Assembly (NCBI RefSeq): GCF_018977255.1
Contig: NW_024704743.1
Span: 17,176,001-17,240,000, forward strand
Length of the DNA: 64,000 nt
Direction of reading: 5' to 3'
Source of the DNA: Callorhinchus milii
Lineage: Eukaryota
The notes below the pieces were generated by a model. It searched no databases. It saw only the letters and a list, made by a program, of their open reading frames with translations, and was not told the DNA's origin. A program made the translations under genes and the position numbers. Below, one piece after another: positions 8,190 to 64,000 of the stretch (its first letter is position 1; each line of letters opens with the position of its first letter).

Positions 8190-8450
8190 CACTCTTGCTC
8201 TCTTTCTCTCTCTCGTTTGGCCGCTGATCTTTGGCGCAGGAGGAGTGCTGGTCCTCCGGCTGCGTTGGACGGTGGGACACAGGCCGTGACGCTCACCCGC
8301 ACTCGCTCGGTGTCTGACAACAACAACAACTACTACTACCACCACTACTACTACTTGCATCCGTTTAGCGCCCTTCGCTCGGGAGCAGCAGCTTGTGGAG
8401 CTCAACCGGGCAGAGCTCAACGCCGAGCCAGCGGGAGAGAGTAAGCGCAG
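8190..8450 (+). promoter_or_regulatory. Putative CpG-rich promoter / non-coding first exon of copy A
   Basis: Homologous to 31234-31520 and 62765-63050 (ctcttgctct...gctgatctttggcgc.ggagga...gacgctcac); conserved donor-like gtaagcgcag at 8441; preceded by a G-run. Confidence 0.5.
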
Positions 8451-8818
8451 TGGAAGAGGAAGGTCTTCAGGTGTCTGCCCTCTGAATGAGGGGACGGAGG
8501 CGGCCAGGCAGAGTTTCAAAGTTTCGGGCGTAGCGGCTGAAAGCACGTGCGCCGATGGTGGAGAGATGGGGATAATAATAACAATACAAATAATAATAAT
8601 AATAATCCTTCCATTTGATATGAGGCCTCATCACATCGATGTCTCAAAGCAGTTCTTTATGGAGTGTCCCACAAGGAACAATGAGAAGAGCAGCCAAATT
8701 AATTTGAATTTGGGGACACATTTGGATTAGGAGAAGAAGATGAACCAGGAGAAAGACTCCCAAGTTTTCTTTGAAATGGAAATGGCAGGGTGGGCCCTCT
8801 ACATGTACCTTAATCAGT

Positions 8819-9134
8819 GGAGTCCTGTAGCTCAGTGGTTAGAGCACTCGCTTTGCAAGTGAGAGACCTGAGTTCAATTCCAGGCGGAGGGCGAAACCTT
8901 GGGCAAGTTTCCTTACTCCACACAGAGCCTAATAATAATCCCTCCAAAACAAAACAATAATAAATTGGTCATTTTCAATCCACGACTGTTTGTGGGACAT
9001 TGCTGTGCGCAATTGGCTGCCGCGTTCGCCCACAAATATACAGTCAATTCACTTTACAGTATATTCTGTGAAGCGCTTTGGGACGTCTAGAAGACGTGAA
9101 AAGCGCTATATCAAATGCAAGGATTATTATTATT
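8819..9134 (+). mobile_element. Full-length tRNA(Ala)-derived SINE
   Basis: A-box tagctcagtggttagagc, TGC anticodon-like loop, B-box gagttcaattcc, core gtttgtgggacattgctgtgcgcaattggctgccgcg, tail gcgctatatcaaatgcaagg(att)n. Confidence 0.9.
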
Positions 9135-10309
9135 AATCACATGTCAGGTGGAACCTAACATCTTAACACAGTGAAAAAATAGGATGATGACTCCATCCCA
9201 GAGTCCCTCCAACTCGCTCTCTCACTCACCACTTTTAAGGGTCCGTCTCAAGTCCTTCCTCTTTGACTGCACCTACGGTCATCTTTCATCTCTCCACCCG
9301 CTCCTCCCACCCCCAGCTCAGGTGCCAAAGCAGGACTGGCAAGGGCCTTAGGACAGATTGCCACTGTTTAAAGTGCTGTATAAAAGTAAGTTTGTATTGT
9401 ACATTATATATAACTTTGTTCTGCAGGGGAATAGCCACTAATCTGCATTTCACAAACGACAAGTGGAAACAACTGAGGAAAAAATCGGAAGGAAGCAAAA
9501 TCAGGATCACAAAGACTTGACACTTCTGCTCTGAGATTCCTAGGTATCTTTAAAGTCTGCTTTTACCCAGTTTCACTATAAATACATGAATGTTTTAGCG
9601 AACGTTTCTTAAAAATCTATAAACACGGTTGAAGAGGAAGGTACCTGAAGATGGGAAAGAATACGCTACCTGAAGATGGGAAAGAATGGGGAAAGGTGGA
9701 GGGTTAGAGGGAGAGTGTTCCAGAGTTTCGGGGCCACCAACAGTGGAACGGAGAGCACGAAGGACAAGCAGGAGGCTTTGGTATGACCTCAGTGTGATTT
9801 AGGAGTCTTTTTGGTGTTGAACTATGTTACTTCGCACCCGAATTGGTTACGTTTGTTACTAGTGATCCGCGAGTGAAAGCTGTTTGGAGTTGGACTGTTG
9901 AGTTCTCTGATCAGTTCCCTTCAACAATGAGCAGAAAATCAGTGATAGATATTTTTCACCACAAAACATATCTGTTTTATTCTCCATCAAATTATTTTCC
10001 CCCTTGATTTTCCCTTTTTCTACAGAAGAAACCCGAAAATTATACTTTCAAAAATAAATTAGAAAAGTTAACTTATTCAGGGTACACATTCTTTCTTAAT
10101 GGAGTATTCAAAACAACAGACAGCCATCTTAGTGTAGAAAGAGGCTGCCCTCTGCCATATTGAGGGAAGTCACGTCATTTCATATTCAATGTGTTTTATT
10201 TCTGCACATAGTGAGTGGAGAATTCTGAAGTATAGCATTAAATCGGAAGTTGTCTTTCTGCTGTTCTTAAAAGAGTTTATAATTAATTAATTATCCTTAT
10301 AGTGGGTTG

Positions 10310-14681: not shown

Positions 14682-14798
14682 ATGGTAGCTAAGAAATTAA
14701 TCATAGCTATATCAGTTATGTTCTGCAGTTTGCTTATCATCATATCTGTTTCAATTGCCTTTGCAACCAAAAAGAAAATTCTGTCCTCAGGATTGAAG
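14682..14798 (+). CDS. ENTPD3-like: ENTPD3-like copy A, coding exon 1 (N-terminal TM helix)
   Basis: Acceptor AG at 14672-14673, strong Kozak context agaATGg, MVAKKLIIAISVMFCSLLIIISVSIAFATKKKILSSGLK, donor gtatgt at 14799. Confidence 0.85.
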
Positions 14799-17074
14799 GT
14801 ATGTTACTTATTACTGAAATCTACACATTTAATTTCTACATACGTTATATTAACAATTATGACGCCTCCCAACATGAAGGAAGCTATATAAATCTAATCT
14901 ATCGATGTGATGCCTCACTGCCTTGAGGAATGGGGATAACATTGTAGGAATAAAGAAACCAACTTCCAAAATGACCCATTTACTAAATAGAAAAATGCAT
15001 ATTTGACAACAGTACATAATTATTAAATACAAAATTCAGTAAAGGTAATATATGTGACAATTTGAGGAGTCCTGTCATGCCCGTGTGCAGACATAAGACA
15101 GAATTAAAAGGCAACATAAAGACACTGCTTTTTAACTCTTATTTCATGTTACAGCCATTAATGATAATAATCCTACCACGTAATATCGTGTCTTACGTTG
15201 GAAAGACATCTCAAATTTGTTATACAATAACAAATTGTATTTACATATAATGTAAATTTGATGGAGAACAGGAGATGATGAGATCACAGATGTGTTGACG
15301 AATGCAAGACAAAAAAAGACAATAGTGTGAGATGAAGTGCTGTTCCTCGAGCTTGCATTGTGCTTTGTTGGAACAATGTAGGAGACCCTGGACAAAGAGG
15401 TCAGAATGGGAAGGAGAATTAAAATGGCAAGTGACCGGAACCTCAGGGGTGCACTTGCTCGAGCAACAGCACCTCATCTATCTTCTTACAGGCACCTTAC
15501 AGCCCTCTGGCCTCAACATTGATTTTAACTACTTCAGACCTTAACCACGGCTCCCATCTTCTCTCAGCCTTGCCTCTTCTCTCCCTCTTCTATAACCATT
15601 CACACATCCTCTGGTTCGCAGACATATTTTTTCTTTCTCTCATCTCCCACTATTACCTTATTTTGTCTTGCACCATCAACACCTCTGTGATCTATTAATT
15701 TCCTGTCCTCAACCTTTTTTTTTCCTTTGACTTTCTTTCCCCGCCCACTTATAATAATAATAATAATAATCCTTGCATTTGATATAGCGCTTTTCACGTC
15801 GACTGTATATTTGTGGGCGAACGCGGCAGCCAATGGCGCACAGCAATGTCCCACAAACAGTCTTCTCTGTTTGTCCTTATAAACAGCTCCCTTCCAACAT
15901 TCCCCAGTTCTGAGGAAAGGTGCAGCCTGACCTGCTGAGTGTTCCCAGAGAGGTCTGTTTTTATTTCAGGGAGATATAGGCAGATTAGTTGATTGAGCAG
16001 AGAAATGGTAAGTAGAAATTGGCTGCCGCGTTCACCCACAAATATACAGTCAATTCACTTTACAGTGTGTTCTGTGAAGCACTTTGGGAGTCCTCCCGAC
16101 GTGAAAAGCGCTATATCAAATGCAAGGATTATTATTATTATTATTAAGTGAAATTTAATGCAGACCTTAAAAAGTTAGGTACAGGGGTATAGGGAAAGCC
16201 AAGGGGATTGGGACTGAAAGGATTGCTCTTGAGGGAACATGATAGTTTGAATGGTCTACTTCTGTGCCATAAATTTCTGTGGTGCTCTGGGATCTTTTTT
16301 TTGGTCAGCTGAAGAGTATCCAAATCAAACTGAGAATTCCATGCATCCCACGTCTACTTAACAGGCAGATGGGACCTCAGTTTAATCTGTCCTGAAGTAC
16401 ATCAGTGCACTGTAGTGCAGCACTGCACTGGAGTGTCGGCCGAGAATATGAATTCAAAATCCCTAAGTGGGGCTTGATTTGAATGTGAATAATTATCTAT
16501 TATTATTAATTGAAGGGATATTTAATTCAGTTTCACATTAAACGACAACATTAACAAGTTTCAGCAGTGTTACCCTAGGATTACATTGAAGTTGTAATTT
16601 GGGTATTTTGCAAATGGTTTGAAGAGTATTTTTCTGGCAATTGGGAAATTTGAAATAGTGTCAGTATCAGACATCATATCAAACAGTGTGATAGAAGTGC
16701 ACAGAGTGAACAAATAAGCATTAAGGTCTGAAATTCCGACTAGCTTCAGCTTGTAATAATGTAGTAATTTTTTTATAAATTTAAGATGGAGCTAAATTGT
16801 ACACAGAATGAGTCCCATAGTGTATTGGTTAGCAAGTGAGAGGACCTGGATTTGAATCCCGGGAGGGTGAAACTTTAGGCAAGTTTCTTTATTCCACACA
16901 GTCAATTCACTTTACAATATATTCTGTGAAGCACTTTGAGCCATCTAAACAACTTGATAAGGTGCTATATCAAATGCAAGGATTATTATTCTTATTTAGC
17001 ATGATGTTGAAATCTGTTTTAATGTTGAAGAAGTTAGCATAATTAATAAAAGCCATTATCTGTCTTCTTTACAG

Positions 17075-17192
17075 TATGGGATTATTCTTGATGCTGGATC
17101 CAGCAGGACAACTGCATTTGTTTACCAGTGGCCAGCAGAAAAGAAGCATAACACTGGTCTGGTGACTGAAAAATATCATTGTAGAATTGAAG
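17075..17192 (+). CDS. ENTPD3-like: ENTPD3-like copy A, exon 2 (ACR1)
   Basis: 118 nt, AG/GT bounded; YGIILDAGSSRTTAFVYQWPAEKKHNTGLVTEKYHCRIE. Confidence 0.95.
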
Positions 17193-17339
17193 GTAGAAAG
17201 CTCAAATGTTATTCTCTAAAATTTTAGTCTTCAGGCCACATATAGTACTCAGAATGTTCTGTTATATCTGCAGTTCAAATGTTGTGAACAAGGACCTATT
17301 CTCCCTTTGTCAGAAACTATACAGAGCGTTGGAACCTTG

Positions 17340-18330
17340 GTATAGTACTCTCATCAGTAAGTTTACCAAGCTTGGCGACGTAATCTTACACTGGAGTTTC
17401 ATTGTCTCCTCACATATAATAGCCCTGAATAGCTCAAGAGGCAAAGGTGGCAGTATATCCTTCCAATGTGAAAGTAGCTCTATTTTACCATATGGCTTTC
17501 CACAATCAGCTTGGGCAGTCACCTCATCAAAAAAGTCCATGAGGTTGGTCAAACACGACCTACGCTTTCTGAACCCACGTTCGCTGTCATATATTAGATT
17601 ATTTTATTCAACTAACCTTGCATTTCCATTGTGATGATTGACTACCTAATGTTTCTAATTATTGAGGTCAGGCTAATGGGTCCATAGATGCCAGCTATAG
17701 TTCTGTCAATTTTCTTGAAAATTGGAATAACGTTTGTTTGCTTCCAGGCTGTTGGAATGTCACCAATTGACTCCCTCATGTTGTCTGGTGTGACATTTGC
17801 GATCTTCCAATCCATGGGGACTGTTCCAGAATCCAAGGAATTTTGGAAGATCAGACATAAGGCCTCCACTATCTCATAAGCTACCTCTTTTAAAACCCTG
17901 GGATGCAAGTCACCTTGGACCATGGCATCTGTCACTTTTTAGTGCTTTTTAGTGCTAAGAGTTTCCCTAGCACCAATTCTCTACTAATGAAAATTTCCCT
18001 AAGTTGCTCCCTGTCCTTATCCCCTTGGTGCAACGGACACATTTTTTGCCTTGTCTCTACCTTGGGATACAATACATCCATCCCAGGGGAATTGCTTGAG
18101 TTTCAAGGCCCTTTAACCTTTTTGGAACTTTAGTCTTATTTATGTTAACATCCTGGAACTCAAACAATATTTGCTGGATGTTAGCGGCATGGTTTATTGT
18201 CCTCCCTGGTAAAAAACCTCCTGGAAGTTGTCATTTAATACTTTGCCACCTCCTGTTTATTCCATTGTTCAACCTTCTTTGAATCCCTTAGACTTTTAAT
18301 GTCTTCCCTGAATACCCTTTTAGTGTTTAG
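17340..18330 (-). mobile_element. CR1 LINE fragments in intron 2 of copy A
   Basis: TNLMDFFDEVT, HPRVLKE, DWKIANVTP and GPISLTS motifs. Confidence 0.8.
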
Positions 18331-18858
18331 TCCCAGAGCCTTGGGACGTCCTCCCGATGTGAAAGGTACTATACAAATGTAATTTGTTGTTATAATGATT
18401 TATCTAGCTATTCATATACCAAGCTGACTAAAAACACACTTTTTTAAAAAAATTAGTATTACATTGTTGATAAATATGGTCGAGGCAGTTTATGACTAAA
18501 GACTGCTTTACAGTTATGATCACCATCATACATACACACACCTAACTCTATGCTCTGGTCCAAAGCCAACTGCAGCCATTGTCTTTTGTCTTGTAGAGCA
18601 ACTGGAATGTCAGTTTAATTAAAATTTTCGTCTTCTTTAGCCTCTTGTAAGATAATCAGCAGAGGTAAGCATCTCCAAGAGCTAACAGAGAAGGAAACAT
18701 CTGCCAGTCACTCTAGCTACAACATCATATATCTGTTTCAGATGTCGTTATTATGTTGTTTTTTTAATCATTTTCCTCCTGTTAAGTTTCATTATTCATC
18801 ATCATTTTTTCATCCATCAATTGACTGACATCATTTGTCTTCCCTTCTCTACCTGCAG

Positions 18859-19009
18859 GACCCGGCATCGCAACTTACAAAGAAAACCCTAAACAAGCAG
18901 CTATTGCAATCCTTGACTGCCTGAATCGCACATTAAAAATAATCCCAAAAGAGCGATATAGCACAACGCAAGTCTGTTTGGCAGCTACAGCAGGAATGCG
19001 ACTACTAGA
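18859..19009 (+). CDS. ENTPD3-like: ENTPD3-like copy A, exon 3 (ACR2)
   Basis: 151 nt; GPGIATYKENPKQAAIAILDCLNRTLKIIPKERYSTTQVCLAATAGMRLL; donor gtaaga. Confidence 0.95.
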
Positions 19010-19069
19010 GTAAGATTAGGGGTTATTGATGTTTACATTTACACATTGCAACAATATACAGCAGCCTCA

Positions 19070-19380
19070 CTGGGGTAGCTGATAGAGCTACACCTTATCG
19101 GTCGGGAGCTCACTGGTTCAAATCCCTAAATTTGCTGGTGTCTGATGAGGCTGCATGGGGAGACGAAACTGGTTGCTGAACATCCCAGGGTTACACAGCG
19201 GAAAATCAGCCAGGTTCCTGATTCTGGTCTATCTTCAACACCCTAAATAAATCTCTAAGGCTCTGTTTGTCACAGCCAGGTGAGGAGAAGTCAGGCTTAG
19301 CTCCAATGCCCTTGACAGTCTGCCGACATTCACTACCAAAGCTGACGCATGAACCATGATCACTTAGTTAGATATGGTAA
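19070..19380 (+). mobile_element. Old tRNA-derived SINE of a different family
   Basis: B-box-like ggttcaaatccc followed by ggaaaatcagccaggttcctg core, resembling common shark SINEs (from memory). Confidence 0.45.
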
Positions 19381-20815
19381 TGAGAAAAAAATTAGAAAAA
19401 AAATTGAACATACTAACATTTAAAAATAAAGTTAAAAATAAAATGTACAGCATATAATAATCTTTGCATTTGATATAGCGCCTTATCATGTTGCTGAGAC
19501 TTCTTAAAGCGCTTCAGAGGATGTAGAACCATAGAAATTTACAGCACAGAAGAAGGCCTTTCCAACCTCAAGCAATCCTTTCAGTCTTATTTTTCAGTGT
19601 GACCTTTCCCCGTATCCTGTAGCTGACTCTTTTTAGTGTATTTGTCTAGTTCCCTCTTGAAGGCCAATATGCATTCTGCCTCAACCTCCACCATTGACAG
19701 GTCATTCCATTCCTGACTAATCTATCTATGAAAACAATTCTCCTAATCTCTCCCATTTGCTTGTTTTCTAACTATCCTAAATTGATGCTCTCTAGGTACT
19801 GATAATACAGTACTGTAATGTGGTGTGATTTTGTGTTTTGTGTATGAACTGCGCAGCCAATGTGCCCACAGTAATGTACCACAAACAGTGATAGAGTGCA
19901 TGACCAATTTTGTTTGGGCGATTGTTGTCCAAACTCTTTTTCTCTTTTCAAATAGTGACATGGGTTCTTTAAAGTTCTCCTGAACAGGCAGACAGGCCAT
20001 GGTTTAATCCAAAGGATGGCACCTCCAACAATTTAGCACAACCCCAGCACTGCATTGGAATGTCAGTCGAGACATTATGAGCTCTAAGTCCTGACTGGGT
20101 CTTGAACACAAAGCAGGAACTTGCATTTATATTGTGCTTTTCACATAAATTAAAATGGAATAGAAATGAAATGGATATTATACAGGCAAATATGGCAGTT
20201 AATATGACCTAGCAATGTCCAATGAACAATAAACAATAATGAGGTGAATAGCTAATTAATTTGAATTTGGGGGACAAACTTATTATTACAGAATAAATCG
20301 TAAATAATTTTACGTTGTCTTTAAAAATCTACTTTTGAAATGTCCTCCTGACATGGAAGGTGCTGTATAATATTATGTGTAAATTGCATTGCGTTTTCTC
20401 AAATGAGAGCTGAGATGGGACTCCTCATCTCCCATGAATATTCAAGCACTTGCTGGAGTTCAAGAGGACTGCTTCAGTCTAAAACTGCTCTGTGTAGCTA
20501 GCTGGCTTTATCGTAGCCTCTGTCTATACATATTCATTTATTTACCAAGGGTTGGGCAATAAATGTTGGCTTTGCCAGTGTTACCCACAAGCCGAGAAGA
20601 GTTTAAAAAAAAGTCTGATTAATTGATTGTGTCCTTAGAAAATCCCTGAATCCGAGATACAGTATGTAGTTTGGGGACACAACATGTCAAGCGACTGCTA
20701 GGATGGTAGAAAGATGAACTAGATGGACCTTGGTCTTCTTTCGCCTAGCAAATTCTTATGTAAACCGAGGCTAAAGACGTGATGTTGTTGTCTTATCTCT
20801 TCCTGGAATTGTCAG

Positions 20816-20975
20816 ACTGCAGGATAAACCCGCAGCACAGAGAATACTTTCAGAAATCGAAGCTTTATTCAAAACGTTACCATTTAATTTTGGACGTGTT
20901 CATATTCTTACTGGGAGAGAAGAAGCAATTTACGCTTGGATCTCAGCAAACTATTTAAAGGGCAATTTAGTAAAG
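20816..20975 (+). CDS. ENTPD3-like: ENTPD3-like copy A, exon 4 (ACR3)
   Basis: 160 nt; LQDKPAAQRILSEIEALFKTLPFNFGRVHILTGREEAIYAWISANYLKGNLVK; donor gtaagt. Confidence 0.95.
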
Positions 20976-21147
20976 GTAAGTCAAAAGTTATATTTCCTGA
21001 AGATTAAAAATTTCAGCTGAACTACATTACCACTTTTTCTCTGCTGGAGTCTGTATATTCTTTTAATTTTAGAATAAAGTTGAGAATATCAGTACCAGTA
21101 AGAAATATTCTGGTATTAACCTTTGTACCAGGTACCTAATATTAACC

Positions 21148-21631
21148 CTCTCCCGCACCAGGCTCCATCACCCCGAACCTCGCCCGACTCCACTGGCTTC
21201 CCATCACACAGATCAGTTCAAGATCATGGTCCTCACCTTCGAAGACCTCCATGGCCTTGCTCCCCCCTACCTCTGTGATCTCCAAACCCCCTACCAACCT
21301 GCTCACTCACTCTGCTCAGAGGGCTCTGGCCTGCTTCATGTCCCCGCCTCGCCCGCCCCACCATTGCCGGGCGAGCCTTCAGCCACTCTGCCTCCACTCT
21401 CTGTATCTCCATACTGCAGTCCATTTACTTTGTACCCTCCCTTGCCTCCTTCAAAACCCATCTCAAGATCCTCCTCTTCAACTTTGCCTTCGATCACCCT
21501 CCTTTCCCCCCACGCCCCTTCCTCCATCCTCCTGATCCCCCAGCTCAGGTCCGAAGCACTGACTGTCCAGGGCCTTGGGACATCCTCCCGACGTGAAAGG
21601 CACTATACAAATATAATTTTATTGTTGTTGT
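21148..21631 (+). mobile_element. L2 LINE 3' end
   Basis: ctccactggcttcccatc...ttcaagatc...cttgggacatcctcccgacgtgaaagg...(ttg)n. Confidence 0.88.
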
Positions 21632-22611
21632 AAGTGCTGCTCCACTGATCCACCAAAGCACTCTCTGCTCTTCACCAGAACGGCTGCCTGCAATGTTTTA
21701 ATAGTATGCAAGTTTTAAGAGAATGCGCATATTGTAAACTATTTGAGAACAATGTGAATGCTGCATTCATACTGTAGATTTTAGAATTAATCATGGTGGT
21801 CCAACAATACAGCAAGGGAAGGTCAAGGTCCCTTGAGTTCTTACATACTGACGATGACAATGCAGGGTGGATGTTCTCCACTGAGTCAAAGACCAGTACT
21901 AACTCCGTACAAATCAAAGCTGTACTACTGTGAAATATTTACACACCACTGCATGTTTGTGGCACACACAATGCTTAAAATGATCCTGGTCCTAACCACC
22001 CTTCCTCGTAACCCATCTCAATCTTGCTCTGTGTAAAGATGTCTATCCTGAAATTTAATTTTTGCAATGCATTAGATCTAAATTGCATAATTTGGCTTAC
22101 GCCCCCCCCCCCCCCCCCCGCAGTCCCTTGAAGCTCTTGGGCCATTTGTCCAATAAACCAGAACTTTTTTTAACTGTTTTATTTTTAATTTTCCAAATAT
22201 CAGAAACAATGCCCCAAACAGGGAGAGGAGGCTAAGTTATGAAACTAGAATATTTGTAAAGTCAGCAGCTAAAGCCACATATTATTTGTTAAAATATCAT
22301 CTAATAAAATTTAATTATCAGTATACTAAAAACAGGTAACAACATATTATGGTCTTTAGAGGCTCAGAGGAAATAAAGACTGATGTATCCGCCATGCTTT
22401 TGAGGTGAATTAATATAAAACGGTCCACTCTTTACCTGAAGGGCTGAGCTCCAATAGGCCAATCAACCCTTTCAAGGACAAAAGACCTCCAGAGATAAGA
22501 TAAAAAGTCTTAATTTTAATTGTGAACAAGAAAATATATTTTTATATTTTCATGTTTATGTCATGTGCTGATGGAAGTTAATTTTATTTTCCCCACCATT
22601 TTCTTTGGCAG

Positions 22612-22839
22612 AGAAATAATAAGCAATATAGACATCCTTTTATTGTCAGAACTTCGGGTGCATTGGACTTAGGTGGAGCTTCTACACAAATAGCCTTTAC
22701 TCCCAGAAGGATTTTAAATAAACTTGCTACCCCAGCCAAAGTTATGTTGTATGGGCACAAATATGTGATCTACACTCAAAGCTTTGAATGTTATGGAAAG
22801 GATGAAGCTGAGAGGAGATACCTGGTGAATATTTATCAG
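22612..22839 (+). CDS. ENTPD3-like: ENTPD3-like copy A, exon 5 (ACR4)
   Basis: 228 nt; RNNKQYRHPFIVRTSGALDLGGASTQIAF...LYGHKYVIYTQSFECYGKDEAERRYLVNIYQ. Confidence 0.95.
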
Positions 22840-23443
22840 GTATTTATCTTCAGAGAAACAGAAATGTCCTTGTCAGTTTTGTAAATGTCATTTATACTGA
22901 GCTTGATAGGTTCTGGGCTGGAGTTTCCTGATGTATATGGATGGATATACACGTAATGAGAAAGGTACTATTTCCCAATATTTGCAGATAACAAAGGGTT
23001 ACCATACACTGTTCACTGGCTGTACTGACATTTTTGCTGGAGGCTTACATTGGAATTTATGTGCTACAATTAATAATATTTTTGCATTTGATTATGGGCT
23101 CTATCATGTCGAAACATATCAAAGCACTTCATCCAGTTTTCTTTTGCAAACTGTAGTGGTTGTGTAATTTGAACACAAATACGGAAGTCAATTTGTGCAG
23201 TGATTGCTCACAAACATCCATGACCAATTTTAGCCAGGCTACAACTAACCTCTAAACAACTAAACTAATGCACAGTAAACCTAAATTCAATCCATTTTCT
23301 GATTGTAGGATTTTGAATATTTTATATTACTGTATTTTGGTTCATATGTTCTTGTTATTCACATCTGCTAATTCTGCACCAATGACGATAACTTTTATTC
23401 CTTATATTCTTTTTCACCCAATCTTGTGTTTTTTTCAACTAAG

Positions 23444-23716
23444 GCTTCAGAAAGCAAGTGGCCTTATCAAAGTCCTTGTTGGCCCTCTGGGTACAATGAG
23501 ACAGTTTCTATGAAAGATCTATTTGGAAGTTTATGCACTGCATCGAAAAAGCCAGCAAATTACAAGCCTGATGATGAGATAACATTCACTGGAACTGGAA
23601 ATCCTGCTAAGTGCCAGGAGTTAGTGTATTTATTGTTTGATTTTAAAGCCTGCGCTGGTAAGCACTATTGCTCATTCAGTGGAATCTATCAACCAACAGT
23701 CCGTGGAAAATTTATG
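23444..23716 (+). CDS. ENTPD3-like: ENTPD3-like copy A, exon 6
   Basis: 273 nt; ASESKWPYQSPCWPSGYNET...SLCT...GTGNPAKCQ...FDFKACAGKHYCSFSGIYQPTVRGKFM. Confidence 0.95.
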
Positions 23717-25450: not shown

Positions 25451-25459
25451 CTGTACAAA

Positions 25460-27423: not shown

Positions 27424-27459
27424 TTTTTTCATCTACAACAACACTGATGAAAAACCTGT

Positions 27460-48780: not shown

Positions 48781-48829
48781 GAACTGGAATAGTGGACACC
48801 ACGGGGTTGTCTCATTTCCAGAATTCCAT

Positions 48830-49936
48830 TGTAAGAAAATAAAATCAGCCAAATCTGTAAGGAAATAACGCTAATTCCTTTAACCAGATATCAGACTGTT
48901 TTATTATTATTCGTTCGTTATTCCCCAATATCCCGATGGGTCAAACCAAAGGCCGGTACAATCAACAGATCTTATAACAGAATAACACTACTATAGATAT
49001 ATCGAGTTCAAGAGTTCAAAACTGTCTTTTCAGCACACAAGCTTGATTCTTCATGCTTTCAGTCTTCTTGCTTACAGCTTTCAATCTTCCATCTGATATC
49101 CTGTCTTAGTGTTTCTAGCTCTCAGTTTTCCATCTCTGTACCCTTGTCTCTGCAGCCCGGGATGGCCCCATCTCCCGTATCCTTGTCTCCGCGACCCGGG
49201 ATGGCCCCATCTCCCGTATCCTTGTCTCCGCGACCCGGGATGGCCCCGTCTCCCGTATCCTTGTCTCCGCGACCTGGGACGGCCCCATCTCCCGTATCCT
49301 TGTCTCCACGACCCGGGACGGCCCCGTACACAAAGTTATCGGAACTCTTATACCAATGTTCATCCAATCGTGGTGCGGACATTAGATCACCTGTCGAAAT
49401 CATGCTGGGTTCACGTGAGCACCTCATGGGGTGTACGTGCCTCAGCACACGACACATTGTCCTTAAGACCCCTGTTATCTGATCTAATTGTCGAAGATAG
49501 AGGATTGATCAGTTTAGGACTGTATCTGGTGCTCATTATTTTGTGGTGTGGGATCATTAGTACATTCCTTTTAAGTGACTGGTTATTCCTTATCAGTATC
49601 CCGGGATGGTACTAAGGTCCTCTAGTTTAAGCAACTTGCTCATTAATTGCTATTCTTGAGGGTTGCCTTCTGTTGCTTGGCCCTGTCAGAATCTAGTGAC
49701 TTATTGCTCAGTCGAGATCCTGGGTCGACTGGTACCTCTGTGGCTTGTTGTCATTTACTGATAAGAGGTGACCCCCTGCCCCTGTCCGTCCATTATTCTT
49801 TCAAAAACAGAGAAAACCAGATGTGTCCTATCCCATGACTGTCAGTCCAGTTGTCCCCCACATTTAACTTAAAAGTTAACCCATTCACAACATCTATTAT
49901 GATTCTAGCAGTATACAAAAAGTGTGTATTCTAACA
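48830..49936 (-). mobile_element. LTR-like element related to 3822-4665, containing a 39-bp tandem repeat
   Basis: Shares a ~370-nt block and the same terminus (...ctaaca); left boundary uncertain. Confidence 0.55.
49130..49326. repeat. 39-bp tandem repeat, ~5 copies (ccccatctcccgtatccttgtctccgcgacccgggatgg)
   Basis: Directly visible; head-to-tail with no spacers. Confidence 0.95.
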
Positions 49937-50328
49937 GTATGTCACCTTGAACTCACTTGAATTCCGTGGGGACTTTGCTTACCTCCCCTCCAAGGAATCT
50001 AGTCATTGGATGGTAATTTGACATTTCAACAAGCATAAGTTTGAGCCCTCATGAGGTAGATAGCAGCCTGGATTACTGGAGGCTTATATTTGGAACTATT
50101 CATAATAAGTAGCAAACAATCCATGAGAATTCTAAATATTAATGTCTAAAGACCATTTTCGAATTGTAGCACATTTGAATTATTTTCAAATATATATACT
50201 ACAGTATACGAATAATATACGGTTCACATATGATTCATATGCTCTACTTGTATTCAGATGCTAATTCTGTATTAATGTCGAAACTTTTATTGCTTATACA
50301 CTCCAGCTAATCTTTTTTTTAAATTTAG

Positions 50329-50601
50329 GCTTCAGAAGGCAAAACAATTCTTGAATGTCCTTGTTGGCCCTCGGGTTACAATCACACAATTTCTGTGAAT
50401 AATTTATTTGGAAGTTTATGCACTGTATCGAAAAAGACAGCAGATTACAAGCCTGATGTTATGGTAACTTTCATTGGAAAAGGAAATCCTGCGAAGTGCC
50501 AACAATTAGCGTACTTATTGTTTGATTTTGAAGCTTGCTCTGGTAAACGTTATTGCACATTCAATGGATACTATGTTCCAGAAATCTATGGAAAATTTAC
50601 G
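50329..50601 (+). CDS. ENTPD3-like: Copy B exon 6
   Basis: 273 nt; ASEGKTILECPCWPSGYNHT...SLCT...GKGNPAKCQ...FDFEACSGKRYCTFNGYYVPEIYGKFT. Confidence 0.93.
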
Positions 50602-50701
50602 GTAAATTGCAATTGCAAATATTTGAAAATCTGAATTTATCTGCATGTTAGGTTATGAAATTTACAGTAGAATTATATATATTTCCATCCAAATAATCTA
50701 G

Positions 50702-50812
50702 GCATTTGGCGGATTCCATTACATGAGAAAAGCCTTGCAGTTGCCGCTTTCATTTCCAGTGACTAAATACAATCAGGCAGTTTGGTCTTTTTGTACAAAA
50801 AAGTGGGCTGAG
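50702..50812 (+). CDS. ENTPD3-like: Copy B exon 7
   Basis: 111 nt; AFGGFHYMRKALQLPLSFPVTKYNQAVWSFCTKKWAE; donor gtaagt. Confidence 0.93.
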
Positions 50813-51544
50813 GTAAGTAACAAATTGCTCTTTTTATCCTAAAATGTTGTTAAGATGTGGAAAGTATTCCAAGATTGAATCTTATGGATTTGGTCAGTGA
50901 CATAAAGAATGTGTTTGTGTTCCTATTGTAAAGCAATGCAACTGTAACTAAGATTTTTTTTAAAAGCAAAAGTTTCCATCAAACACCCAGATGAAATATT
51001 ATACATCTCTGAATATTTTTGCTAAAACTGTGGGGTCAAAATTCAGTTGCACCGCATAACAAACATGATATAAGATTAATAACATAATTGGGGAATAGAA
51101 AAAAACAATGTACATAATTGTACATATGAATTATCTGTGAGTTATTTGGATGATTTATTTGGGAATACAGCTCTGTAGTTAGGCAGGAAATAGGCTTGTG
51201 TTGGGCCATTACTTTAAAAATAGGAAATTGGGTCATTTTGACAGATAACTTTGACGCAATATCGATACAACTCATTGGAACAGCATAGAATGTTTTAAGA
51301 AAAAGTTATTAATATGACTCATTGGAACAATGTCGACTGCAGCTTATGTTGGTGGTGGTGACCACAGAATGTAGTTAAAATATATTTGTAGAATACATAA
51401 TAACAGGAAAAACCCAAGATAAGAGTGTAATCCTCACGTAAACATAATTCAAAACCTAATTGTGTGCCTGTCATCGGTGCGCTATGGTATAGCTTTCCTT
51501 TTACTAACTTCTCGGGTGCTCACAAGCTGAATCCTTTACTACAG

Positions 51545-51900
51545 CAACAACAAAAACAACAAATTGCATTTGTATAGCGCCTTTCATTTTGGCAGGACGT
51601 CCCAATGTGCTGTACCATCAGGGATTTGGACCCAAGCTGGGGTTTGGGATCAGGAGGGGTGGAGGGCAGGGAGGGTAGGGGAGGAAGATTAAGTGTAGAC
51701 GCGGTCGAAGAGCAGTGTCTTGTGATTGAAGGAGGCAATACAGAGAGCAAGGCGAAGTGACTCTGGGATGTAGTATCAAAGAGTGGGGGCAGAAAGAATG
51801 AAGACCCGACCGTTGATGGTGAAGAGGGCCGGGCGGGGAACTGAGCAGAGAGAATGGGAAGGTCTGTATGGAGCTAGCAGGTCACAGAGTTAGGGAGGAG
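51545..51900 (-). mobile_element. L2 3' end
   Basis: (caa)n tail and tgtatagcgcctttca. Confidence 0.8.
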
Positions 51901-52606
51901 CGTCTTTTGAGGTCAGTGTGTCCTCATTCTGTCTAGGACTACAGAGCCACTGGATCTTGAGAAACAATGTCTTTGAGGTGCCTTGCTCTGCAGTAACACT
52001 TTCTGCCTTCTTTCTTTCTCATCTCTGCTGTGTTTTGCACTCCACCATGTGCTGTCCCATTATTTACCTTGTTCTCTGAGGTGTCTTTATCTGAGTTGTA
52101 CTGCTTTCTAAAGAGTTGAACAGTTTTATAGCTTTTGGGAGAATTGTGCCAGCCTTCCTTCTTTAAACTTGAAACTATTTACGAGCAGTGTATAAATGTA
52201 GTTTCCACCAAAACAGTATCCTTTGATGTAAGGAAGGAAGGAAGGCTGACACCATTCTCCCAAAAGTCCATGATATAAGGTGCTAAATCAAATACAAAGA
52301 TTATTAAAATCAACTGGTTTCAGAACCCCAGAAGTCATACTCAAACTCTATAATGTTCTGGTAAGACCGCACTTAAGAGTGCTGCGAACAGTTCTGATTG
52401 CTGCAACTTAAGGGCCCAGGCCCCAAAGGAAGTGCAGAGAGCAACAAGGATGAACCCCAGAGTTAGACAAATAAGCCTTGAATGACGATCAGACAAGCCA
52501 GGAATCGTGAAAGGAGGCAGCTCAGAGAGGGCCCTGGGTATATACTATTTTAAATGGGATTGTGAAAGTCATCACAGAACAATACTTTTGGATGCACCAC
52601 GACAGA

Positions 52607-52915
52607 ACAACAGTAACAAAAACAAAATTATTTTTGTATAGCGCCTTTCACGTCGGGACGATGTCACAAGGCCTGGACAGTCAATGCTTCGGACTTGAGC
52701 TGGGGTCGGGATCAGGGAGGGTGGAGGGCAGGGCGGGAAGCAGGGTGATTGCAGACATGGTCGAAGAGGAGGGTCTTGAGATGGGTCTTGAAGGAGGCAA
52801 GAGAGGAAGCGAGGCGGAGGGACTGCGGGATGGAGTTCCAGAGGGTGGGGGCAGCGGTGGCTCAAGGCTTGCCCGCCAATGGTGGGGTGGGCGAGGTGGG
52901 GGATGTGAAGCAGGC
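52607..52915 (-). mobile_element. L2 3' end inserted in a CR1-like fragment
   Basis: tgtatagcgcctttcacgtcggga...gtcttgagatgggtcttgaaggagg. Confidence 0.85.
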
Positions 52916-53563
52916 AGAGAAGAACCAGAGGTCAGAGGTTTTGAGTTTCAAAGAGAAATTATAGGACAGATATCAGAAGTACCCTGATGATTAACAACTG
53001 GAACAATTTACCAGGAAGAGTGATTGAGGCCAGGAACATGATGCTGTGGTGAGAAGGTGGTAAAGTGGGTATTCTGGAAGGATAAAATCAAATGGACTCA
53101 ATAGACTTCTTCATCTAAATCTCTTGTGTTCTTGTGATGAAAACACTTACAAACTGTCCACAAACAGTCGTGAATCCATCTCAAGCCATGAATGTTTGAG
53201 GGACACTGCTGTGTGCAATTGGCTGCCGCGTTTCGCCCACAAAATATACAGTCAATTCACTTTACAGTATATTCTGTGAAGCGCTTTGAGATGTCTTGAA
53301 GACATGATAAAGCACTTTATCAAATGCAAGGATTCTTATTGTTATTTTATCTACAACTAGTAATTATAAAGCACATTTCATGATTTTTTTGGTGTCAAAA
53401 TATTTTACAAATTGAGATTAATTAGAAATTAACTAATCTTGTTATGGAGGCAAACATGGCAGCTAATTTGTACTGAAAATGGCACAAAAATCAATGCTAT
53501 ACAGTGATATAAGAATAACATGACTAAATAAGATAAACTAAACAAATATTACCTGTCTTACAG

Positions 53564-53701
53564 CTAAAAATTATGTTTCCAAATATCTCAAATACCTTCA
53601 TCAGATATTACTGTTTTGGTGGACACTACATATACACACTGCTAGTACATGGGTACAAGTTTAACCCAATGAACTGGAAACAGATAACTTTTACAAATAA
53701 A
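53564..53701 (+). CDS. ENTPD3-like: Copy B exon 8
   Basis: 138 nt; LKIMFPNISNTFIRYYCFGGHYIYTLLVHGYKFNPMNWKQITFTNK; donor gtaagt. Confidence 0.92.
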
Positions 53702-53788
53702 GTAAGTTTAATGATTTTTTTTAAAATAGCAAATTCAACTGTTTCTGATTTATGCAAACGCAATGCTGCAGTGTTCTCCTTGTTTCAG

Positions 53789-53974
53789 ATAAAAGGACAC
53801 AAAATAAACTGGTCACTTGGTTTCATGTTAAACGTCACCAATAAGATTCCACGAACCATTCGAGGGATCAAAACTACAATGTCTTCAACTACTTTTAAAA
53901 CACTTTTCTTTGTGTTTTTAATCATAGGGATGGTATGTGTAACAATTATTTTCAAGGCAATTTTCAGTGAATAA
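53789..53974 (+). CDS. ENTPD3-like: Copy B last coding exon (ACR5 and C-terminal TM helix)
   Basis: IKGHKINWSLGFMLNVTNKIP...TLFFVFLIIGMVCVTIIFKAIFSE then TAA stop. Confidence 0.92.
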   Translation: MKGHKINWSLGFMLNVTNKIPRTIRGIKTTMSSTTFKTLFFVFLIIGMVCVTIIFKAIFSE

Positions 53975-54049
53975 ATTGTAATAATGCAAGTTCTCAGGAC
54001 GATTTTCTTACAACCAAGACTGATGTTTGTTTAACCAAGATCTAACTGA

Positions 54050-55800
54050 CATTTGTTTTAACCATCTCTTTGGCTTGTCATTTGATCTAAAGCATGTTAT
54101 GGTCATTTGAAGAACACTTTGAGAAGCCACCAGAGTTTTATCCTTCAATCAAGTGCTAGGTTTCCAATGTAGATTAGTACATGAGCAGTCAATGTCTCAT
54201 GTTCTCATTAGGAAGTTTCTCTTTCACTAGCATCCAAACAACTTAAAATAAACAATGGTACTCAGAATTATTCCTTACGACGGAACAGGTGGTTTTAAGA
54301 ATGGGAGGGTGGGGAAGAGTGGACATGAGCTTTTGCAGAGACCGAGATTGTTATAGCCACCATGTGCTCTGCTATACATGAGCCTTTGGGAATTAAATCA
54401 GTCAGTGGTGCTGTAGCACAGAGAGGTAAATTGTTAGCCACTTATGGTTCACTAAATTGTAAAATTGTTGATTTCATGTATGCCTTTGCCTGAAGCACTG
54501 AGTGACGGGACATTAGAAGGAAGCTTTCTTCTAGCCACTCGCATATACTTCTCGGTCACTGGACAGAGTAGAGCTGAGAGTGAATCATCTAACTATCATT
54601 GGCCCTGTAATAGGTGCAAAGAGAAAATGGGAAGAACTTGAATAACTCAGAACCAAACATTAAATAGAAATAAAAATGCAATCAATTTGTCTCACAATAT
54701 ATACCATATAGCAACTATGTTAACTGTGACTCATTTTGTAAAGGCAGTCCAGAATTAATGTCCCATATTTTCAATGTGATTGATGGCCTCTTTGCTTTTC
54801 TATAATAGACATTTTACCATATAGACAGAGTCTACGTATCTGGAATCCTTGCTTTAAGTAGTAAACTACAGTAAATTCCTGATAACTTGACCGTGGCTTG
54901 ACTTGTCAGTACCACTTAAGTCATCATACTGTCAATATCCCAGACACATTTATTTACATATTTATTATACATGTGCCTAACTCACCAGTCCAGATACCTC
55001 TTCAGCTTTGCATTTGCCACTACAATAGTTTTGCTAACATTGCGGTTGAAGTCTGTTACAAACTTCCTCCTGGGCACGATCTGAATTGCTGTTTAGAATT
55101 GATTTGACCATTTTTGAAAGTTTCCCTTGAAATGATGAGTTATCAGGAGTTTACTGCTTCTTATTCATGATATTTAAATAATTCCATTAACCACAATAGT
55201 GGAGCTTACGTGATTTATAATTACCATCTGAACTCTCCTCCCAAACAGCTCAGAAATCACTTCATGGGACACCTTCGTTTTTATATATTTTAGCTGTTAT
55301 GTTTTGGTTCTATTCAATATTTTTCATTACCAAAATTGCTTGTTTCATGTTATATAACATTATGTTGTATGATTAAAACCATCTTTAGAAATTATGCAGT
55401 TATTACCAGGAATTGCTATATTCACTACGTGTGTGGAAAATTCCACGAGTCTAGATTTACTCTATTTATGTAGCGCTTGAAAATATCCAGTGTTAGGAAA
55501 TTCTGAAATACAGCCTGTACTTTGAAGCTGGTTTTCTATATACTTCCCTTAAAAACTACAGCAAACCCACTTCAAAGTTGAGACCTAGAATTAAATTAAT
55601 AATAGAAAAATCCCCCAAACACGGAAAAGTATTCCACAGTAAAACTCTGGTATGAAGCAGGGAGGTTTGCATTTGCCACTACAGTATAAAAATAGTTTTC
55701 TAACGCTGCAGTTGAAGTCTGTTACAAACTTCCTCCTGGGCATGATCTGAATTACAGATTAGAATTGATTTGACCATTTTTGAAAGTTCTGAATTATTAT
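54050..55800 (+). other. 3' UTR/flank of copy B, homologous to 27460-28920
   Basis: For example, ggccctgtaatagg...gaagaacttgaataactcagaaccaaacattaaatagaaataaaaatg is shared. Confidence 0.6.
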
Positions 55801-55809
55801 AGATGAATG

Positions 55810-56720
55810 GCAACAACAACTACAATACATTGCATTTATATAGCACCTAAATGCAATTTGGGAGCGCTGGACAATGAGGGATTTGCATCCGAGCTGCAGG
55901 TTGACTGAAGCCACGATGGGAAAGAAAGGTCTTGAGATGGGACTTGAAGGAGGCGAGGGAGGGAGTGAAGCAGAGTGATGGAGTTCCAGAGAGTGGGGGC
56001 AGAAAGACTGAAAGTCCGATTGCTGATAGTGGAGGAAGCAATGCGGGGGATATGGAGCAATTCAGTGCCTGCAGAGCAGAGGGAGCAGACAGCTTGGTGA
56101 AGCTTTAATAGGTCGCAGAGACAGGGAGAAGCAAGACTGTGGAGGGTTTTAAAGATGGAGACAAGGATCTTGAACTCGATCGTCTGGGGATGGGGAGCCA
56201 GTGAGGCTGAGCAAGGACAGCTCACGAAGCTTAGTGCAGGAGAGGACAAGAGCTGCAAGAGTTCTAAATAATTTACAGCTTGTGATGGAAAGAGTGGGAA
56301 GTCCAGTGAGCATGAAGTTACCATAATCAAGCCTGGTCTTGAAAGCATGGATGAGGGTTTCAGCAGCCTTAAGGGTGAGAGAGCGGCAGAGTTGGACAAT
56401 GTTGCGGAGGTGGAGAAAGGCAGAACGAGTAATGGCACTGTGTAGGATGTGGAGCAGACCAGTGGGGTTTAAGGGACAGTTGAAGGTTGAACAAGACACT
56501 AAGGTTCTGGAATGGCTTGACGAGGTGGAGAGTGCATCCAAGTATCGTGACAGTGCCTGTGGTGAGGAAGTGCTGACGGGAGCCAAACAGGTGACTTTGA
56601 TTTTGTCGACATTTAAATTGGCTCTCAACCAGGATTTGATGTGTGACAGACAATCCATCAAGACAGTAGTGGTCCTGGAGTCGAGGGTGGGGTCTGAGAT
56701 AGAGTTGGGTATCATCCAAA
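55810..56720 (-). mobile_element. L2 LINE 3' portion
   Basis: DDTQLY, AFLHLRNI and AETLIHAF motifs. Confidence 0.85.
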
Positions 56721-59210: not shown

Positions 59211-59294
59211 TACCTGCATGAATGACAAAAACTAGTCCCAAAATTTGGCATGCGCCCAAAGCCTTTTCTTTTACACATAATATACAGTATATAT

Positions 59295-62200
59295 TGGGGG
59301 TGGGGGGGAGAAGTGAGAGTGATTGGGGTTGGGGGAGAGAAGTGAGAGTGATTAGGGGATGAGGGGGGGATGAAGTGAGAGTGATTGGGTGTGGGGGGAT
59401 GAAGTGAGTGATTGGGGGGTGGGGGGGGCATGAAGTGAGAGTAATTGGGTGGGTGAGTGGGGGTTGAAGTGAGAGTGATTGGGGGGTGGGGGGGTTGAAG
59501 TCAGAGTGATTGGGGGTGGGGGGGAGAAGTGAGAGTGATGGGGGGTGAGGGGGGGAATGAAGTGAGAGTGATTGGGGGGTGGGGGTGGGGGGTGAAGTGA
59601 GAGTGATTGGGGGGTGAGGGGGAAGAACTGAGAGTGATTGGGGGTGAGGGGGATGAAGTGAGAGTGATTGGGGGTGGGGGGGATGAAGTGAGAGTGATTG
59701 GGGGTGGGGGGATGAAGTGAGAGTGATTGGGGGAGAGGGGGGTGAAGTGAGAGTGATTGGTGGGTGAGGGGGGATGAAGTGAGAGTGATTGGGGGTGGGG
59801 AGTGATGAAGTGAGAGTGATTGGGGGTGGGGGGGATGAAGTGAGAGTGATTGGGGTGTGGGGGGGATGAAGTCAGAGTGATTGGGGGGTGAAGGGGATGA
59901 AGTGAGAGTGATTGGGGGTGGGGGGGTTGAAGTGAGAGTGATTGGGGGTGAAGGGGGGATGAAGTGAGAGTGATTGGGGGGGGGGGGCATGAAGTGAGAG
60001 TGATTGGGGGGTGAGGGGGGATGAAGTGAGAGTGATGGAGGGGTGGGGGGGTCTGAAGTGAGAGTGATTGGGGGGTGGGGGGGTCTGAAGTGAGAGTGAT
60101 TGGGGGAGGATGAAGTGAGAGTGATTGGGGGGTGAGGGTGGGATAAGTGAGAGTGATTGGGGGGTGAGGGGGATGAAGTGAGAGTGATTGGCGGGTGGGG
60201 GGGATGAAGTGAGAGTGATTGGGGGGTGAGGGGGCATGAAGTGAGAGTGATTGGGCGGTGGGGGGGCATGAAGTGAGAGTGATTGGTGGGTGGGGGGGGG
60301 ATGAAGTGAGAGTGATTGGGGGGGTGAGGGGGGGTTGACGTGAGAGTGATTGGGGGATGAGGGGGATGAAGTGAGAGTGATGGGGGGTGAGGGGGGATGA
60401 AGTGAGAGTGATTGGGGGTGAGGGGGTGGATGAAGTGAGAGTGATTGGGGGTGGGGGGTAGAAGTGAGAGTGATTGGGGGTGGGGGAAGAAGTGAGAGTG
60501 ATTAGGGGATGAGGGGGGATGAAGTGAGAGTGATTGGGGGTGGGGGGGCATGAAGTGAGACTAATTGGGTGGGTGAGTGGGGGTTGAAGTGAGAATGATT
60601 GGGGGTGGGGGGGGCATGAAGTGAGAGTGGTTGGGGGGGTGAGGGGGGGTGAAGTCAGAGTGATTGGGGGTGGGGGGGGGGAGAAGTGAGAGTGATTGGG
60701 GGTGAGGGGGGATGAAGTGAGAGTGATTGGGGGGGGATGGGGAGGTGAAGTGAGAGTGATTGGGGGGTGGGGGGAAGAAGTGAGAGTGATTGGGGGGTGA
60801 GGGGGGGATGAAGTGAGAGTGATGGGGGGGGTGAAGTGAGAGTGATTGGGGGGGTGAGGGGGGGATGAAGTGAGAGTGATTGGGGGGGTGAGGGGGGATG
60901 AAGTGAGAGTGATTGGGGGTGAGGGGGGATGAAGTGAGAGTGATGGGGCTATGAAGTGAGAGTGATTGGGGGTGAGGGGGGATGAAGTGAGAGTGATGGG
61001 GTGGGGGGGGGATGAAGTGAGAGTGATTGGGGGGTGAGGGGGGATGAAGTAAGAGTGATTTGGGGGTGGGGGGATGACGTGAGAGTGATTGGGGAGGGGA
61101 TGAATTGAGAGTGATTGGGGGTGAGGGGGGGTGAACAGAGTGATGGTGGGGGATGAAGTGAGAGTGATTGGGGGTGAGGGGGATGAAGTAAGAGTGATTG
61201 GGGTGGGGGGGGATGAGTGAGAGTGATTGGGGGGGGATGAATTGAGAGTGATTGTGGGGGTGAGGGAGCGATGAAGTGAGAGTGATTGGGGGGTGAGGGG
61301 GGATGAAGTGAGAGTGATTGGGGGGTGGAGGGATGAAGTGAGAGTGATTGGGGGGTGGGGGGGATGAAGTGAGAGTGATTGGAGGATGAAGTGAGAGTGA
61401 TTGGGGGGGTGGGGATGAAGTGAGAGTGATGGGGTGGGTGAGGGGATGAAGTGAGAGTGATGGGGGGTGAGAGGGGGATGAAGTGAGAGTGATGGGGGGT
61501 GAGGGGGGATTGAAGTGAGAGTGATGGGGGTGAGGGGGGATGAAGTGAGAGTGATTGGGGGTGGTGGGGGGTTGAAGTGAGAGTGATTGGGGGGTGAGGG
61601 GGGATGAAGTGAGAGTGATGGGTGGGGTGGATGAAGTGAGAGTGATTGGGTGTGGGGGGATGAAGTCAGAGTGATTGGGGGGTAGGGGGGGATGAAGTGA
61701 GAGTGATTGGCGGATGAGGTGGGGATGAATTGAGAGTGATTGGGTGGGGGGTGAAGTGAGAGTGATTGGGGGCGGGGGGGATGAAGTGAGAGTGATTGGG
61801 GGATGAAGTGAGAGTGATTGGGGGGTGAGGATGAAGTGAGAGTGATTGGGGGGTGAGGATGAAGTGAGAGTGATTGGGGGAGTGAGGGTGAGGATGATGT
61901 GAGAGTGATTGGGGGGGTGTGGGGGATGAAGTGAGAGTGATTGGGGTGAGGGGGATGTAGTGAGAGTGATGGGGGTGAGGGGGGATGAAGTGAGAGTGAT
62001 GGGGGGGTGAGGGATGAAGTGAGAGTGATGGGGGGTGAGGGGGATGAAGTGAGAGTGATGGGGGGTGAGGGGGGGATGTAGTGAGAGTGATGGGGGGTGA
62101 GGGGGGATGAAGTGAGAGTGATGGGGGGGGGGATGAAGTGAGAGTGATTGGGGTGAGGGGGGATGTAGTGAGAGTGATGGGGGTGAGGGGGGGATGAAGT

Positions 62201-62764
62201 GAGAGTGATGGGGGGGGTGGTGAGGGGGATGAAGTGAGAGTGATGGGGGGGTGAGGGGGGATGAAGTGAGAGTGATGGGGGGGTGACGGGGGGATGAAGT
62301 GAGAGTGATGGGGGGGTGAGGGGATGAAGTGAGAGTGATGGGGGGGTGAGGGGGGGATGAAGTGAGAGTGATGGGGGGGTGAGGGGGGATGAAGTGAGAG
62401 TGATTGGGGGGTGAGGGGGGATGAAGTGAGAGTGATTGGCGGATGAGGGGGGGGTGAAGTGAGAGTGATTGGGGGGGAATGAAGTGAGAGTGATTGGGGG
62501 ATGAAGTGAGAGTGATTGGGGGGGTGGGGGATGAAGTGAGAGTGATTGGGGGGGGAGGGGATGAAGTGAGAGTGATTGGGGGGGGAGGGGATGAAGTGAG
62601 AGTGATTGGGGGGTGAGGGGGGGATGAAGTGAGAGTGATTGGGGGGTGAGGGGTGAGGATGAAGTGAGAGTGATGGGGGGGTGAGGGGATGAAGTGAGAG
62701 TGATGGGGGGGAGGGGATGAAGTGAGAGTGATGGGGAGGGGATGAAGTGAGAGTGATGGGGGGG
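59295..62764. repeat. Expanded G-rich minisatellite with the same core, ~3.5 kb (on the order of 100+ units)
   Basis: Directly visible; source of the spurious Pro/His/Ser-rich minus-strand ORFs. Confidence 0.97.
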
Positions 62765-63090
62765 TCCCTCTTGCTCTCGCTGTCTCTCTTGTTTGGCTGA
62801 TCTTTGGCGCTGGAGGACTGCAGCTCTGATGCCGGACGTTGGGACAGAGCGTCACTGACGCACAATCCCCGACGCTCACGTTCACTCTCTCAGTGTCTCA
62901 GGGCATCCGCGGCGCCTCCTCCTCACCAGGTGCTGTGGGCCCGGGCCCGGGCCTGGCACAGAGGGCACTGTACACCCACAGGAGCCGCGCCACTGAGCAG
63001 ACAGTTGGGAGAAGCCTCACATGAGCCCTGAGGTGGGAGTGAGCGCAGGTCACAACATCCCCCCCCACGACAGCCTCAGCCCCCCCCACC
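62765..63090 (+). promoter_or_regulatory. Putative promoter / first exon of a third copy (C) continuing beyond the window
   Basis: Near-identical to 31234-31560; donor-like gtgagc at 63039; downstream 63840-64000 aligns with 32355-32510. Confidence 0.55.
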
Positions 63091-64000
63091 CCAGACCCCA
63101 GGCCCCCCCCCACCCCCAGGCCCCCCCCCCCCCCCCCCGCCACCAGCCCCCCCCCCCCGCCCCCCCCCAGCCCAACCCCCCCCCACCCAGCCCCCCTCCC
63201 ACCGGCCCCCCCTCCCCCCAGGCCCAGCCCCCCCACCCCCCACTGGCCCAGCCCCCCCTCCCAGACCGCCCCCAGCCCCCCCCCCCCCCCCCCCCCCCAG
63301 GCCCAGCCTGGAGGGCAGTTATGTTTCAGGCTTAAGATGGTGCAGAATTCAGACTCAGATTTAGAAGCCAAGCCTTTTAACATTGGGGGTGGGGGGCACC
63401 CAAAATAAACTGATATAATAACGTTTTAAGACGAGTTTTTTTTTAAGGCAAAGACCGCAAGACGTGTGCTCTGAGCCGTCTGCACAAGTCGTGAATGAAG
63501 ACACCAGACAGACAGACACACTGTAGTTCCTGTAAATTGACTTCCCAATCTCAGCAGCCTGGTTAGCCTTGACATGTTCGATTATTGCAGAACTCAGACT
63601 CAAATTGGAAGTCATTTATTTTAACATCTGTGGGAAAACGACATGCAAATTAAGACTGAACAGAAGGATTTTCCACACGATTGTGTACCATTGTTTTCAG
63701 CCCCCTTTAGCTGTAGAGAATGAAGACACCAGATACACGTCGTTCACTAGTTCCTATATATTAGTCGAGTTCTCACTACCTTGACTTAATCTTGGCAGGT
63801 CAAAGAACGCACTCCTTTTCTTGAAGTTTCCCATTGACCGCTGGAGTGGCTGATTGACACACAACATGCATATTGTCCCTTGAAAACTAAAGGGCGTGTG
63901 TCAAATCTCAGCCTTGCAAAGGCAATCGTGTTGTGTGGTAAGGAATGAGATGCAGAAGCCTTCTCCTTAGACTTTCCTTTTTAATTAGCTTCATATTTTT

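Follow-up and report, generated by a model that had tools for sequence, protein, structure and literature searches.

The stretch of DNA analyzed here, a 64-kb window from the elephant shark (Callorhinchus milii) genome (64,000 nucleotides, referred to below as the window), carries neighboring genes of the ENTPD3 type and raises the question of whether a local expansion has placed proteins without NTPDase activity beside an active NTPDase, and whether such proteins are maintained or decaying. All three genes, here called copies A, B, and C, are already automatically annotated in RefSeq as plain ENTPD3, a label that, applied to all three, would mislead orthology assignment and the transfer of function.

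The tandem array of ENTPD3-derived genes proposed in a sequence-only reading of the window holds, with A and B as same-strand paralogs and the head of C inside the window. In a self-alignment of the window, the A and B units are co-linear on the plus strand with 68 to 83% identity in low-copy segments, and the two genes also align across intron flanks and the 3' region. Eight coding exons have identical lengths in A and B (118, 151, 160, 228, 273, 111, 138, and 183 nt); AG/GT ends are present on all eight, and the frames are open in both genes. That reading had described a unit of promoter module, nine coding exons, and shared 3' flank occurring twice. The paralogous units and the 3' flank stand, but B has 10 coding exons, the additional one being 32713-32794, and the presumed promoter module is instead a GA-rich minisatellite with a CpG-rich first exon that is coding in C. 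The reported match of 63840-64000 to 32355-32510 is confirmed and extends over 63796-64000 versus 32313-32511 (72%). It marks the head of a third unit at the window end, and the first codons of the RefSeq protein P0125, followed by a splice donor (Table 1), identify this unit as a true gene.

The window holds the head of C only, and the remainder is known from P0125. The P0125 segment after the first four residues resembles B exon 2, and in the UniRef model P0123, exons of B are joined to exons of the P0125 type. Apart from repeats, no homolog of B intron 1 or exon 2 was found in the 5' region of A. The RefSeq ENTPD3 X1 model corresponds to copy A, one exon of which fits C. milii ENTPD3 proteins with 100% identity, and the family PF01150 (GDA1/CD39) is assigned from precomputed hits; by sequence, A shows the NTPDase fold with an E value of about 1e-97 to rat NTPDase1/2. 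The unit A head has a CpG observed/expected ratio of 0.85, and its first exon is putatively noncoding. B is annotated in RefSeq as XP_007896322-325, the longest isoform of which, P0296, equals the B model minus exon 50329-50601. The B head contains an ATG at 31490, the counterpart of the start ATG of C, which lies out of frame with the main open reading frame of B and forms an upstream open reading frame.

Some smaller features accompany the genes. The inverted relic of the 138-nt exon inside a B intron shows about 52% amino acid identity to A and B, and its 33-bp arms have no other occurrence in the window; it represents either a fold-back event or a captured exon. LINE- and SINE-like repeats are dense and present in many copies in 1-8100 and in the introns, and one SINE-like repeat contains a 75-bp perfect tandem duplication (25301-25450). 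No gene beyond the ENTPD copies was noticed in the 64-kb window.

Table 1. Features of the three ENTPD3-type units (positions within the window)
Feature	Position	Strand	Remarks
Unit A head: 1 minisatellite core and CpG-rich putative noncoding first exon	8138..8440	+	72-75% to the heads of units B and C
Gene A CDS, 9 coding exons, 493 aa, ACR1-5 intact	14682..27423	+	Identical to P0121 = XP_007896326
Gene A exons 1-5	14682-14798, 17075-17192, 18859-19009, 20816-20975, 22612-22839	+	
Gene A exons 6-9	23444-23716, 23820-23930, 26656-26793, 27238-27423	+	
A 3' region, probable 3' UTR	27424..28950	+	79.5% to B 3' region, 1304 aligned bases
GA-rich minisatellite of 17 ~29-bp cores, ahead of unit B	30699..31233	+	
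Unit B head/first exon	31229..31555	+	325/327 identical to C head
Gene B CDS, 10 coding exons, 522 aa, ACR1/2/4 degenerate	32713..53974	+	Open frame, spliced contigs
Gene B exons 1-5	32713-32794, 33852-33973, 34813-34930, 41547-41697, 44556-44715	+	
Gene B exons 6-10	45681-45908, 50329-50601, 50702-50812, 53564-53701, 53789-53974	+	
Partial duplicate of B exon 41547-41697	42504..42568	+	82% over 67 nt
273-nt in-frame B exon, five cysteines, intact	50329..50601	+	Skipped in RefSeq isoforms and runs X1, X3
Inverted relic of 138-nt exon, inside B intron	52132..52266	-	Flanked by 33-bp inverted arms
B 3' region, probable 3' UTR	53975..55830	+	X1, X2, X3 contigs over parts of 54065-55149
GA-rich minisatellite ahead of unit C, expanded to 99 cores and 3.5 kb	59293..62763	+	
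Unit C first exon	62760..63032	+	Coding part 63021-63032 = first four P0125 residues, then GT donor
Unit C intron 1	63714..64000	+	72-80% to B intron 1 (32163-32511)

Each unit is preceded by the GA-rich minisatellite, with 1, 17, and 99 cores before A, B, and C, respectively. Behind it, the heads of B (31229-31555) and C (62760-63090) are identical at 325 of 327 positions, with the intron that follows at 72%. Such near identity beside a long minisatellite is what an assembly artefact or haplotype duplication would produce. This explanation of the array is rejected as extremely improbable: the copies are just 46 to 59% identical as proteins, contigs from DNA runs fit the unique B and C sequences with 0 to 4 differences, and RefSeq contains three distinct gene sets. 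Any collapse is limited to the 330-bp head at most. The identity of the two heads reflects either recent conversion or local collapse. In the 273-nt exon (A, 23444-23716), A and C share 85% protein identity, compared to 28 to 70% in the other exons, and two database entries, P0003 and P0122, are mosaics of A and C whose switch point lies at this exon or inside it. Together, the near-identical B/C heads and the conserved A-C exon suggest gene conversion.

The placement of the copies was analyzed in a 29-protein tree (LG+G4; 27 rows out of 47 prepared and 2 added sequences), in which ENTPD2 is represented only by unnamed outgroup rows. A, B, and C form one clade (100/100) that is nested within ENTPD3 (100/100), apart from ENTPD1 and ENTPD8. 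The copies thus fall into the same subfamily and are not split among known ENTPD subfamilies, and the clade bears out the suggested lineage-specific tandem expansion. The duplication order has a branching support of 53/7, with five shared derived states for A and C and three each for A and B and for B and C. Branch lengths of the three copies are 0.25 to 0.59 in addition to a stem of 0.43, compared to 0.10 to 0.23 for elasmobranch tips. The single-copy ENTPD3 of mammals, against which the expansion had first been measured, is the wrong yardstick, since the host is a chimaera and sharks and rays are the proper comparison. A query with a shark protein yields one ENTPD3 cluster per genus in 12 named elasmobranch genera among the best 120 matches, a depth too shallow to contain copy A, so that equally divergent shark paralogs are possible. 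No close relative of the clade in another named species was found among the best 120 of 2364 matches to A, and none elsewhere among the ten named matches in the best 150 of 4979 to a profile of A, B, and C; neither the A query nor the profile returned another chimaera protein among the matches listed. The accessible part of PMC3964593 describes elephant shark proteins as the slowest evolving among the vertebrates examined, and that of PMC3692497 gives no synonymous rate for dating the duplication. In this slowly evolving vertebrate reference genome, a family that combines long branches with a dN/dS ratio near 1 stands out as unusual.

The claim that an active-looking copy adjoins an inactive-looking one agrees with the active-site motifs, and C adds a second inactive-looking copy. 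At the conserved positions of ACR1-4, A is changed at 1 of 21, B at 10, and C at 11; ACR5 is also unaltered in A, B is degenerate in ACR1, 2, and 4, and C is degenerate in ACR1-4, including the catalytic Glu. Across 131 further ENTPD3 proteins, the acidic catalytic positions 45, 165, and 201 (A numbering) are kept in 130, 131, and 130, respectively; both exceptions are gaps, and there are no substitutions. B alters two of these positions, and C alters all three; of the 111 family proteins scored, P0272 is the only one besides B and C that lacks at least two of the three. Mapped on bat CD39, B carries Ala at the equivalent of Ser218 and C carries Leu at that of Glu174, both named as required residues in a title cited in PMC3213008. 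According to the available portion of PMC5803232, ACR mutations change hydrolysis. A single ACR4 Gly change in ENTPD5 (G201A) is reported to be without effect (PMC3829800), and changes in ACR motifs are therefore no proof of inactivity. The excess of ACR changes over those at other conserved sites is nonsignificant for B (10/21 versus 40/135; p 0.13) and significant for C (p 0.008).

B and C could also be re-tooled enzymes with an altered substrate, metal, or rate, a reading considered improbable. B retains the catalytic Glu of ACR3 and the Trp of ACR5, the Asp of ACR1 is replaced by Glu in both copies, and three derived changes at conserved columns are common to B and C, ACR1 and ACR4 accounting for two. 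Both copies carry His at the ACR4 Gln, a position at which elasmobranch ENTPD3 tolerates Glu. Two ACR Asp residues have a role in metal binding. Against re-tooling, the Asp of ACR4 and the Gly of ACR2 are gone in both copies, C is without the catalytic Glu, and a Glu has entered the ACR2 phosphate loop of B. As for the elasmobranch ENTPD3 proteins aligned (P0038 and P0129-P0138), Glu replaces the ACR4 Gln in these sequences, as in 12 of 131 ENTPD3 proteins overall, and most of them have Ala at the first Ser of ACR1.

The question of decay concerns B above all, which, perhaps together with C, could be a transcribed pseudogene in the making, its function lost and its sequence drifting neutrally with no disabling hit yet. 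Selection was examined with the author's own implementations on two sequences, A and B. Their dS is 0.33 to 0.41 with a dN/dS of 0.90 to 1.20 by counting; a codon model gives a dN/dS of 0.89, with a value of 1 not rejected and 0.5 rejected. A ratio of about 1 is what such a pseudogene would show, as is a coding identity (70%) equal to that of anchored intron flanks (71%; 693/981) and below that of the 3' region (79.5%). At codons conserved in other vertebrates, the dN/dS is 0.44. Counterevidence comes from the frame. Gaps between A and B amount to about 30 per kb in intron flanks, with zero frameshifts in the exons, and in neutral simulations, the frame stays open in 9 of 2000 runs at a branch of 0.1 and never at longer branches. 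Under neutrality, 16 to 27 disruptions are expected in B (equal branches, halved or full gap rates), and no stop or frameshift is found. B can therefore have been neutral for at most 11 to 18% of its own branch, for which 1.0 to 1.6 ACR changes are predicted and 10 are observed; this neutral-drift limit stems from an approximate model, with P at 1e-6 or less under its assumptions. Ten changes in 21 ACR positions with zero disruptions point to a decay of the active site under a protected frame. In the approximate model, B was thus under selection after the loss of catalytic residues, and the permitted neutral phase is too brief for the observed changes. The ten cysteines and every splice site of B are likewise intact. 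Taken together, the pseudogene explanation is unlikely, although a late loss of B following a long pseudoenzyme phase may have occurred.

A site model of the A-B pair assigns 16% of codons to a fast class, with a likelihood ratio statistic of 17.7 that none of 102 null simulations reached; the statistic falls to 4.7 once whole-codon rates are allowed to vary. The codon class defined a priori as variable has a dN/dS of 1.15 (p 0.29), not above 1. Positive selection in this pair is no more than suggested.

The transcripts bear on the same alternative, as frequent exon skipping in B speaks for a pseudogene. Four of 12 listed runs were examined over 44001-64000, and three of them, X1 to X3, are putative RNA and were used for spliced joins only. 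A contig of run X3 joins 50702-50812 to 53564-53701, and in one of run X2, 50702-50812 is followed by 53789, with the 138-nt exon left out; the spliced B contigs come from runs of two studies. The skipping of the 273-nt exon in the X1 and X3 contigs was deduced from depth arithmetic. The main spliced B form is consequently without five of the ten cysteines. This loss by skipping is the chief fact against a working B protein, and the predominance of transcripts without the exon calls for caution, even though the exon itself is genomically intact. In-frame exon skipping is annotated for A and C too, with the RefSeq model as the only transcript basis for C. Another RefSeq isoform of B, P0148, has a short, different tail and lacks the C-terminal helix; this tail is consistent with an upstream acceptor at 53773-53788.

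The full models of A, B, and C contain all 10 disulfide cysteines and two hydrophobic (transmembrane) helices each. The net charges of the three copies are +36, +30, and +19; those of 120 further ENTPD3 proteins range from -10 to +15. An alignment-based structure model of C (pLDDT 87) matches best to CD39 and NTPDase2, with an E value of 4e-41 for the NTPDase fold, as expected from an alignment built from active homologs; the single-sequence model reaches a pLDDT of 34. A prediction of the A-C complex, made without alignments, scored 0.00, a value that speaks neither for nor against such a complex.

On balance, B and C are probably maintained pseudoenzymes beside one enzyme. According to the tree, ENTPD3 underwent a tandem triplication in the elephant shark lineage once this had separated from that of sharks and rays. 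A, with its intact motifs, would remain an ecto-ATPase/ADPase. B and C, predicted two-pass membrane proteins with an NTPDase fold, have lost metal- and phosphate-binding residues and presumably activity. Selection would have preserved the frame, the disulfide cysteines, and the anchors of both, which, judged from their sequences, are most likely noncatalytic surface proteins. The preferred mechanism, put forward tentatively as one possibility, is that the fast-changing, cationic ectodomain binds a polyanion or an external partner. More doubtful is the wider proposal that B and C are germline NTPDase pseudoenzymes that have become cationic, adaptively diversifying cell-surface receptors or decoys at an interface with gametes, mucosa, or pathogens. 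The specialized purinergic, secretory-tissue, or immune system considered possible in the sequence-only reading is likewise speculative. NTPDases oligomerize, and the next option, an assembly of B and C with A that adjusts ATP breakdown locally, is rather unlikely. Full-length, catalytically dead paralogs of the CD39 family look very rare, and B and C would therefore offer a direct route to noncatalytic NTPDase roles. No published description of the C. milii ENTPD3 copies was found among the open-access papers listed, and one supplement each of PMC3964593 and PMC12952989 contains no description of the locus.

Compared to known systems, the copies share with vertebrate ENTPD3/NTPDase3 the clade, the fold, two transmembrane helices, and ten cysteines, and A has all five ACRs; C. 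milii differs in its three tandem copies, the catalytic losses of B and C, long branches, and a strong cationic charge. Local duplication of cell-surface NTPDases is likewise found in the ENTPD8-like pair of Polypterus and the three-domain model of Strigamia; in contrast to these arrays, B and C lack at least two of the three acidic catalytic residues. The prozyme (PMC5201418) and FLIP(L) (PMC7586951), as described in the accessible parts of these papers, also arose by duplication with loss of catalysis and retention of the fold. These proteins belong to other families and regulate their active siblings, whereas any physical association of B or C with A is hypothetical. Within the NTPDase family, the inactive ENTPD5 variant mt-PCPH likewise exerts effects without detectable activity, according to the available section of PMC3829800. 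There, mt-PCPH is a truncated frameshift tumor mutant; B and C, in contrast, are full-length germline paralogs with a rewritten active site.
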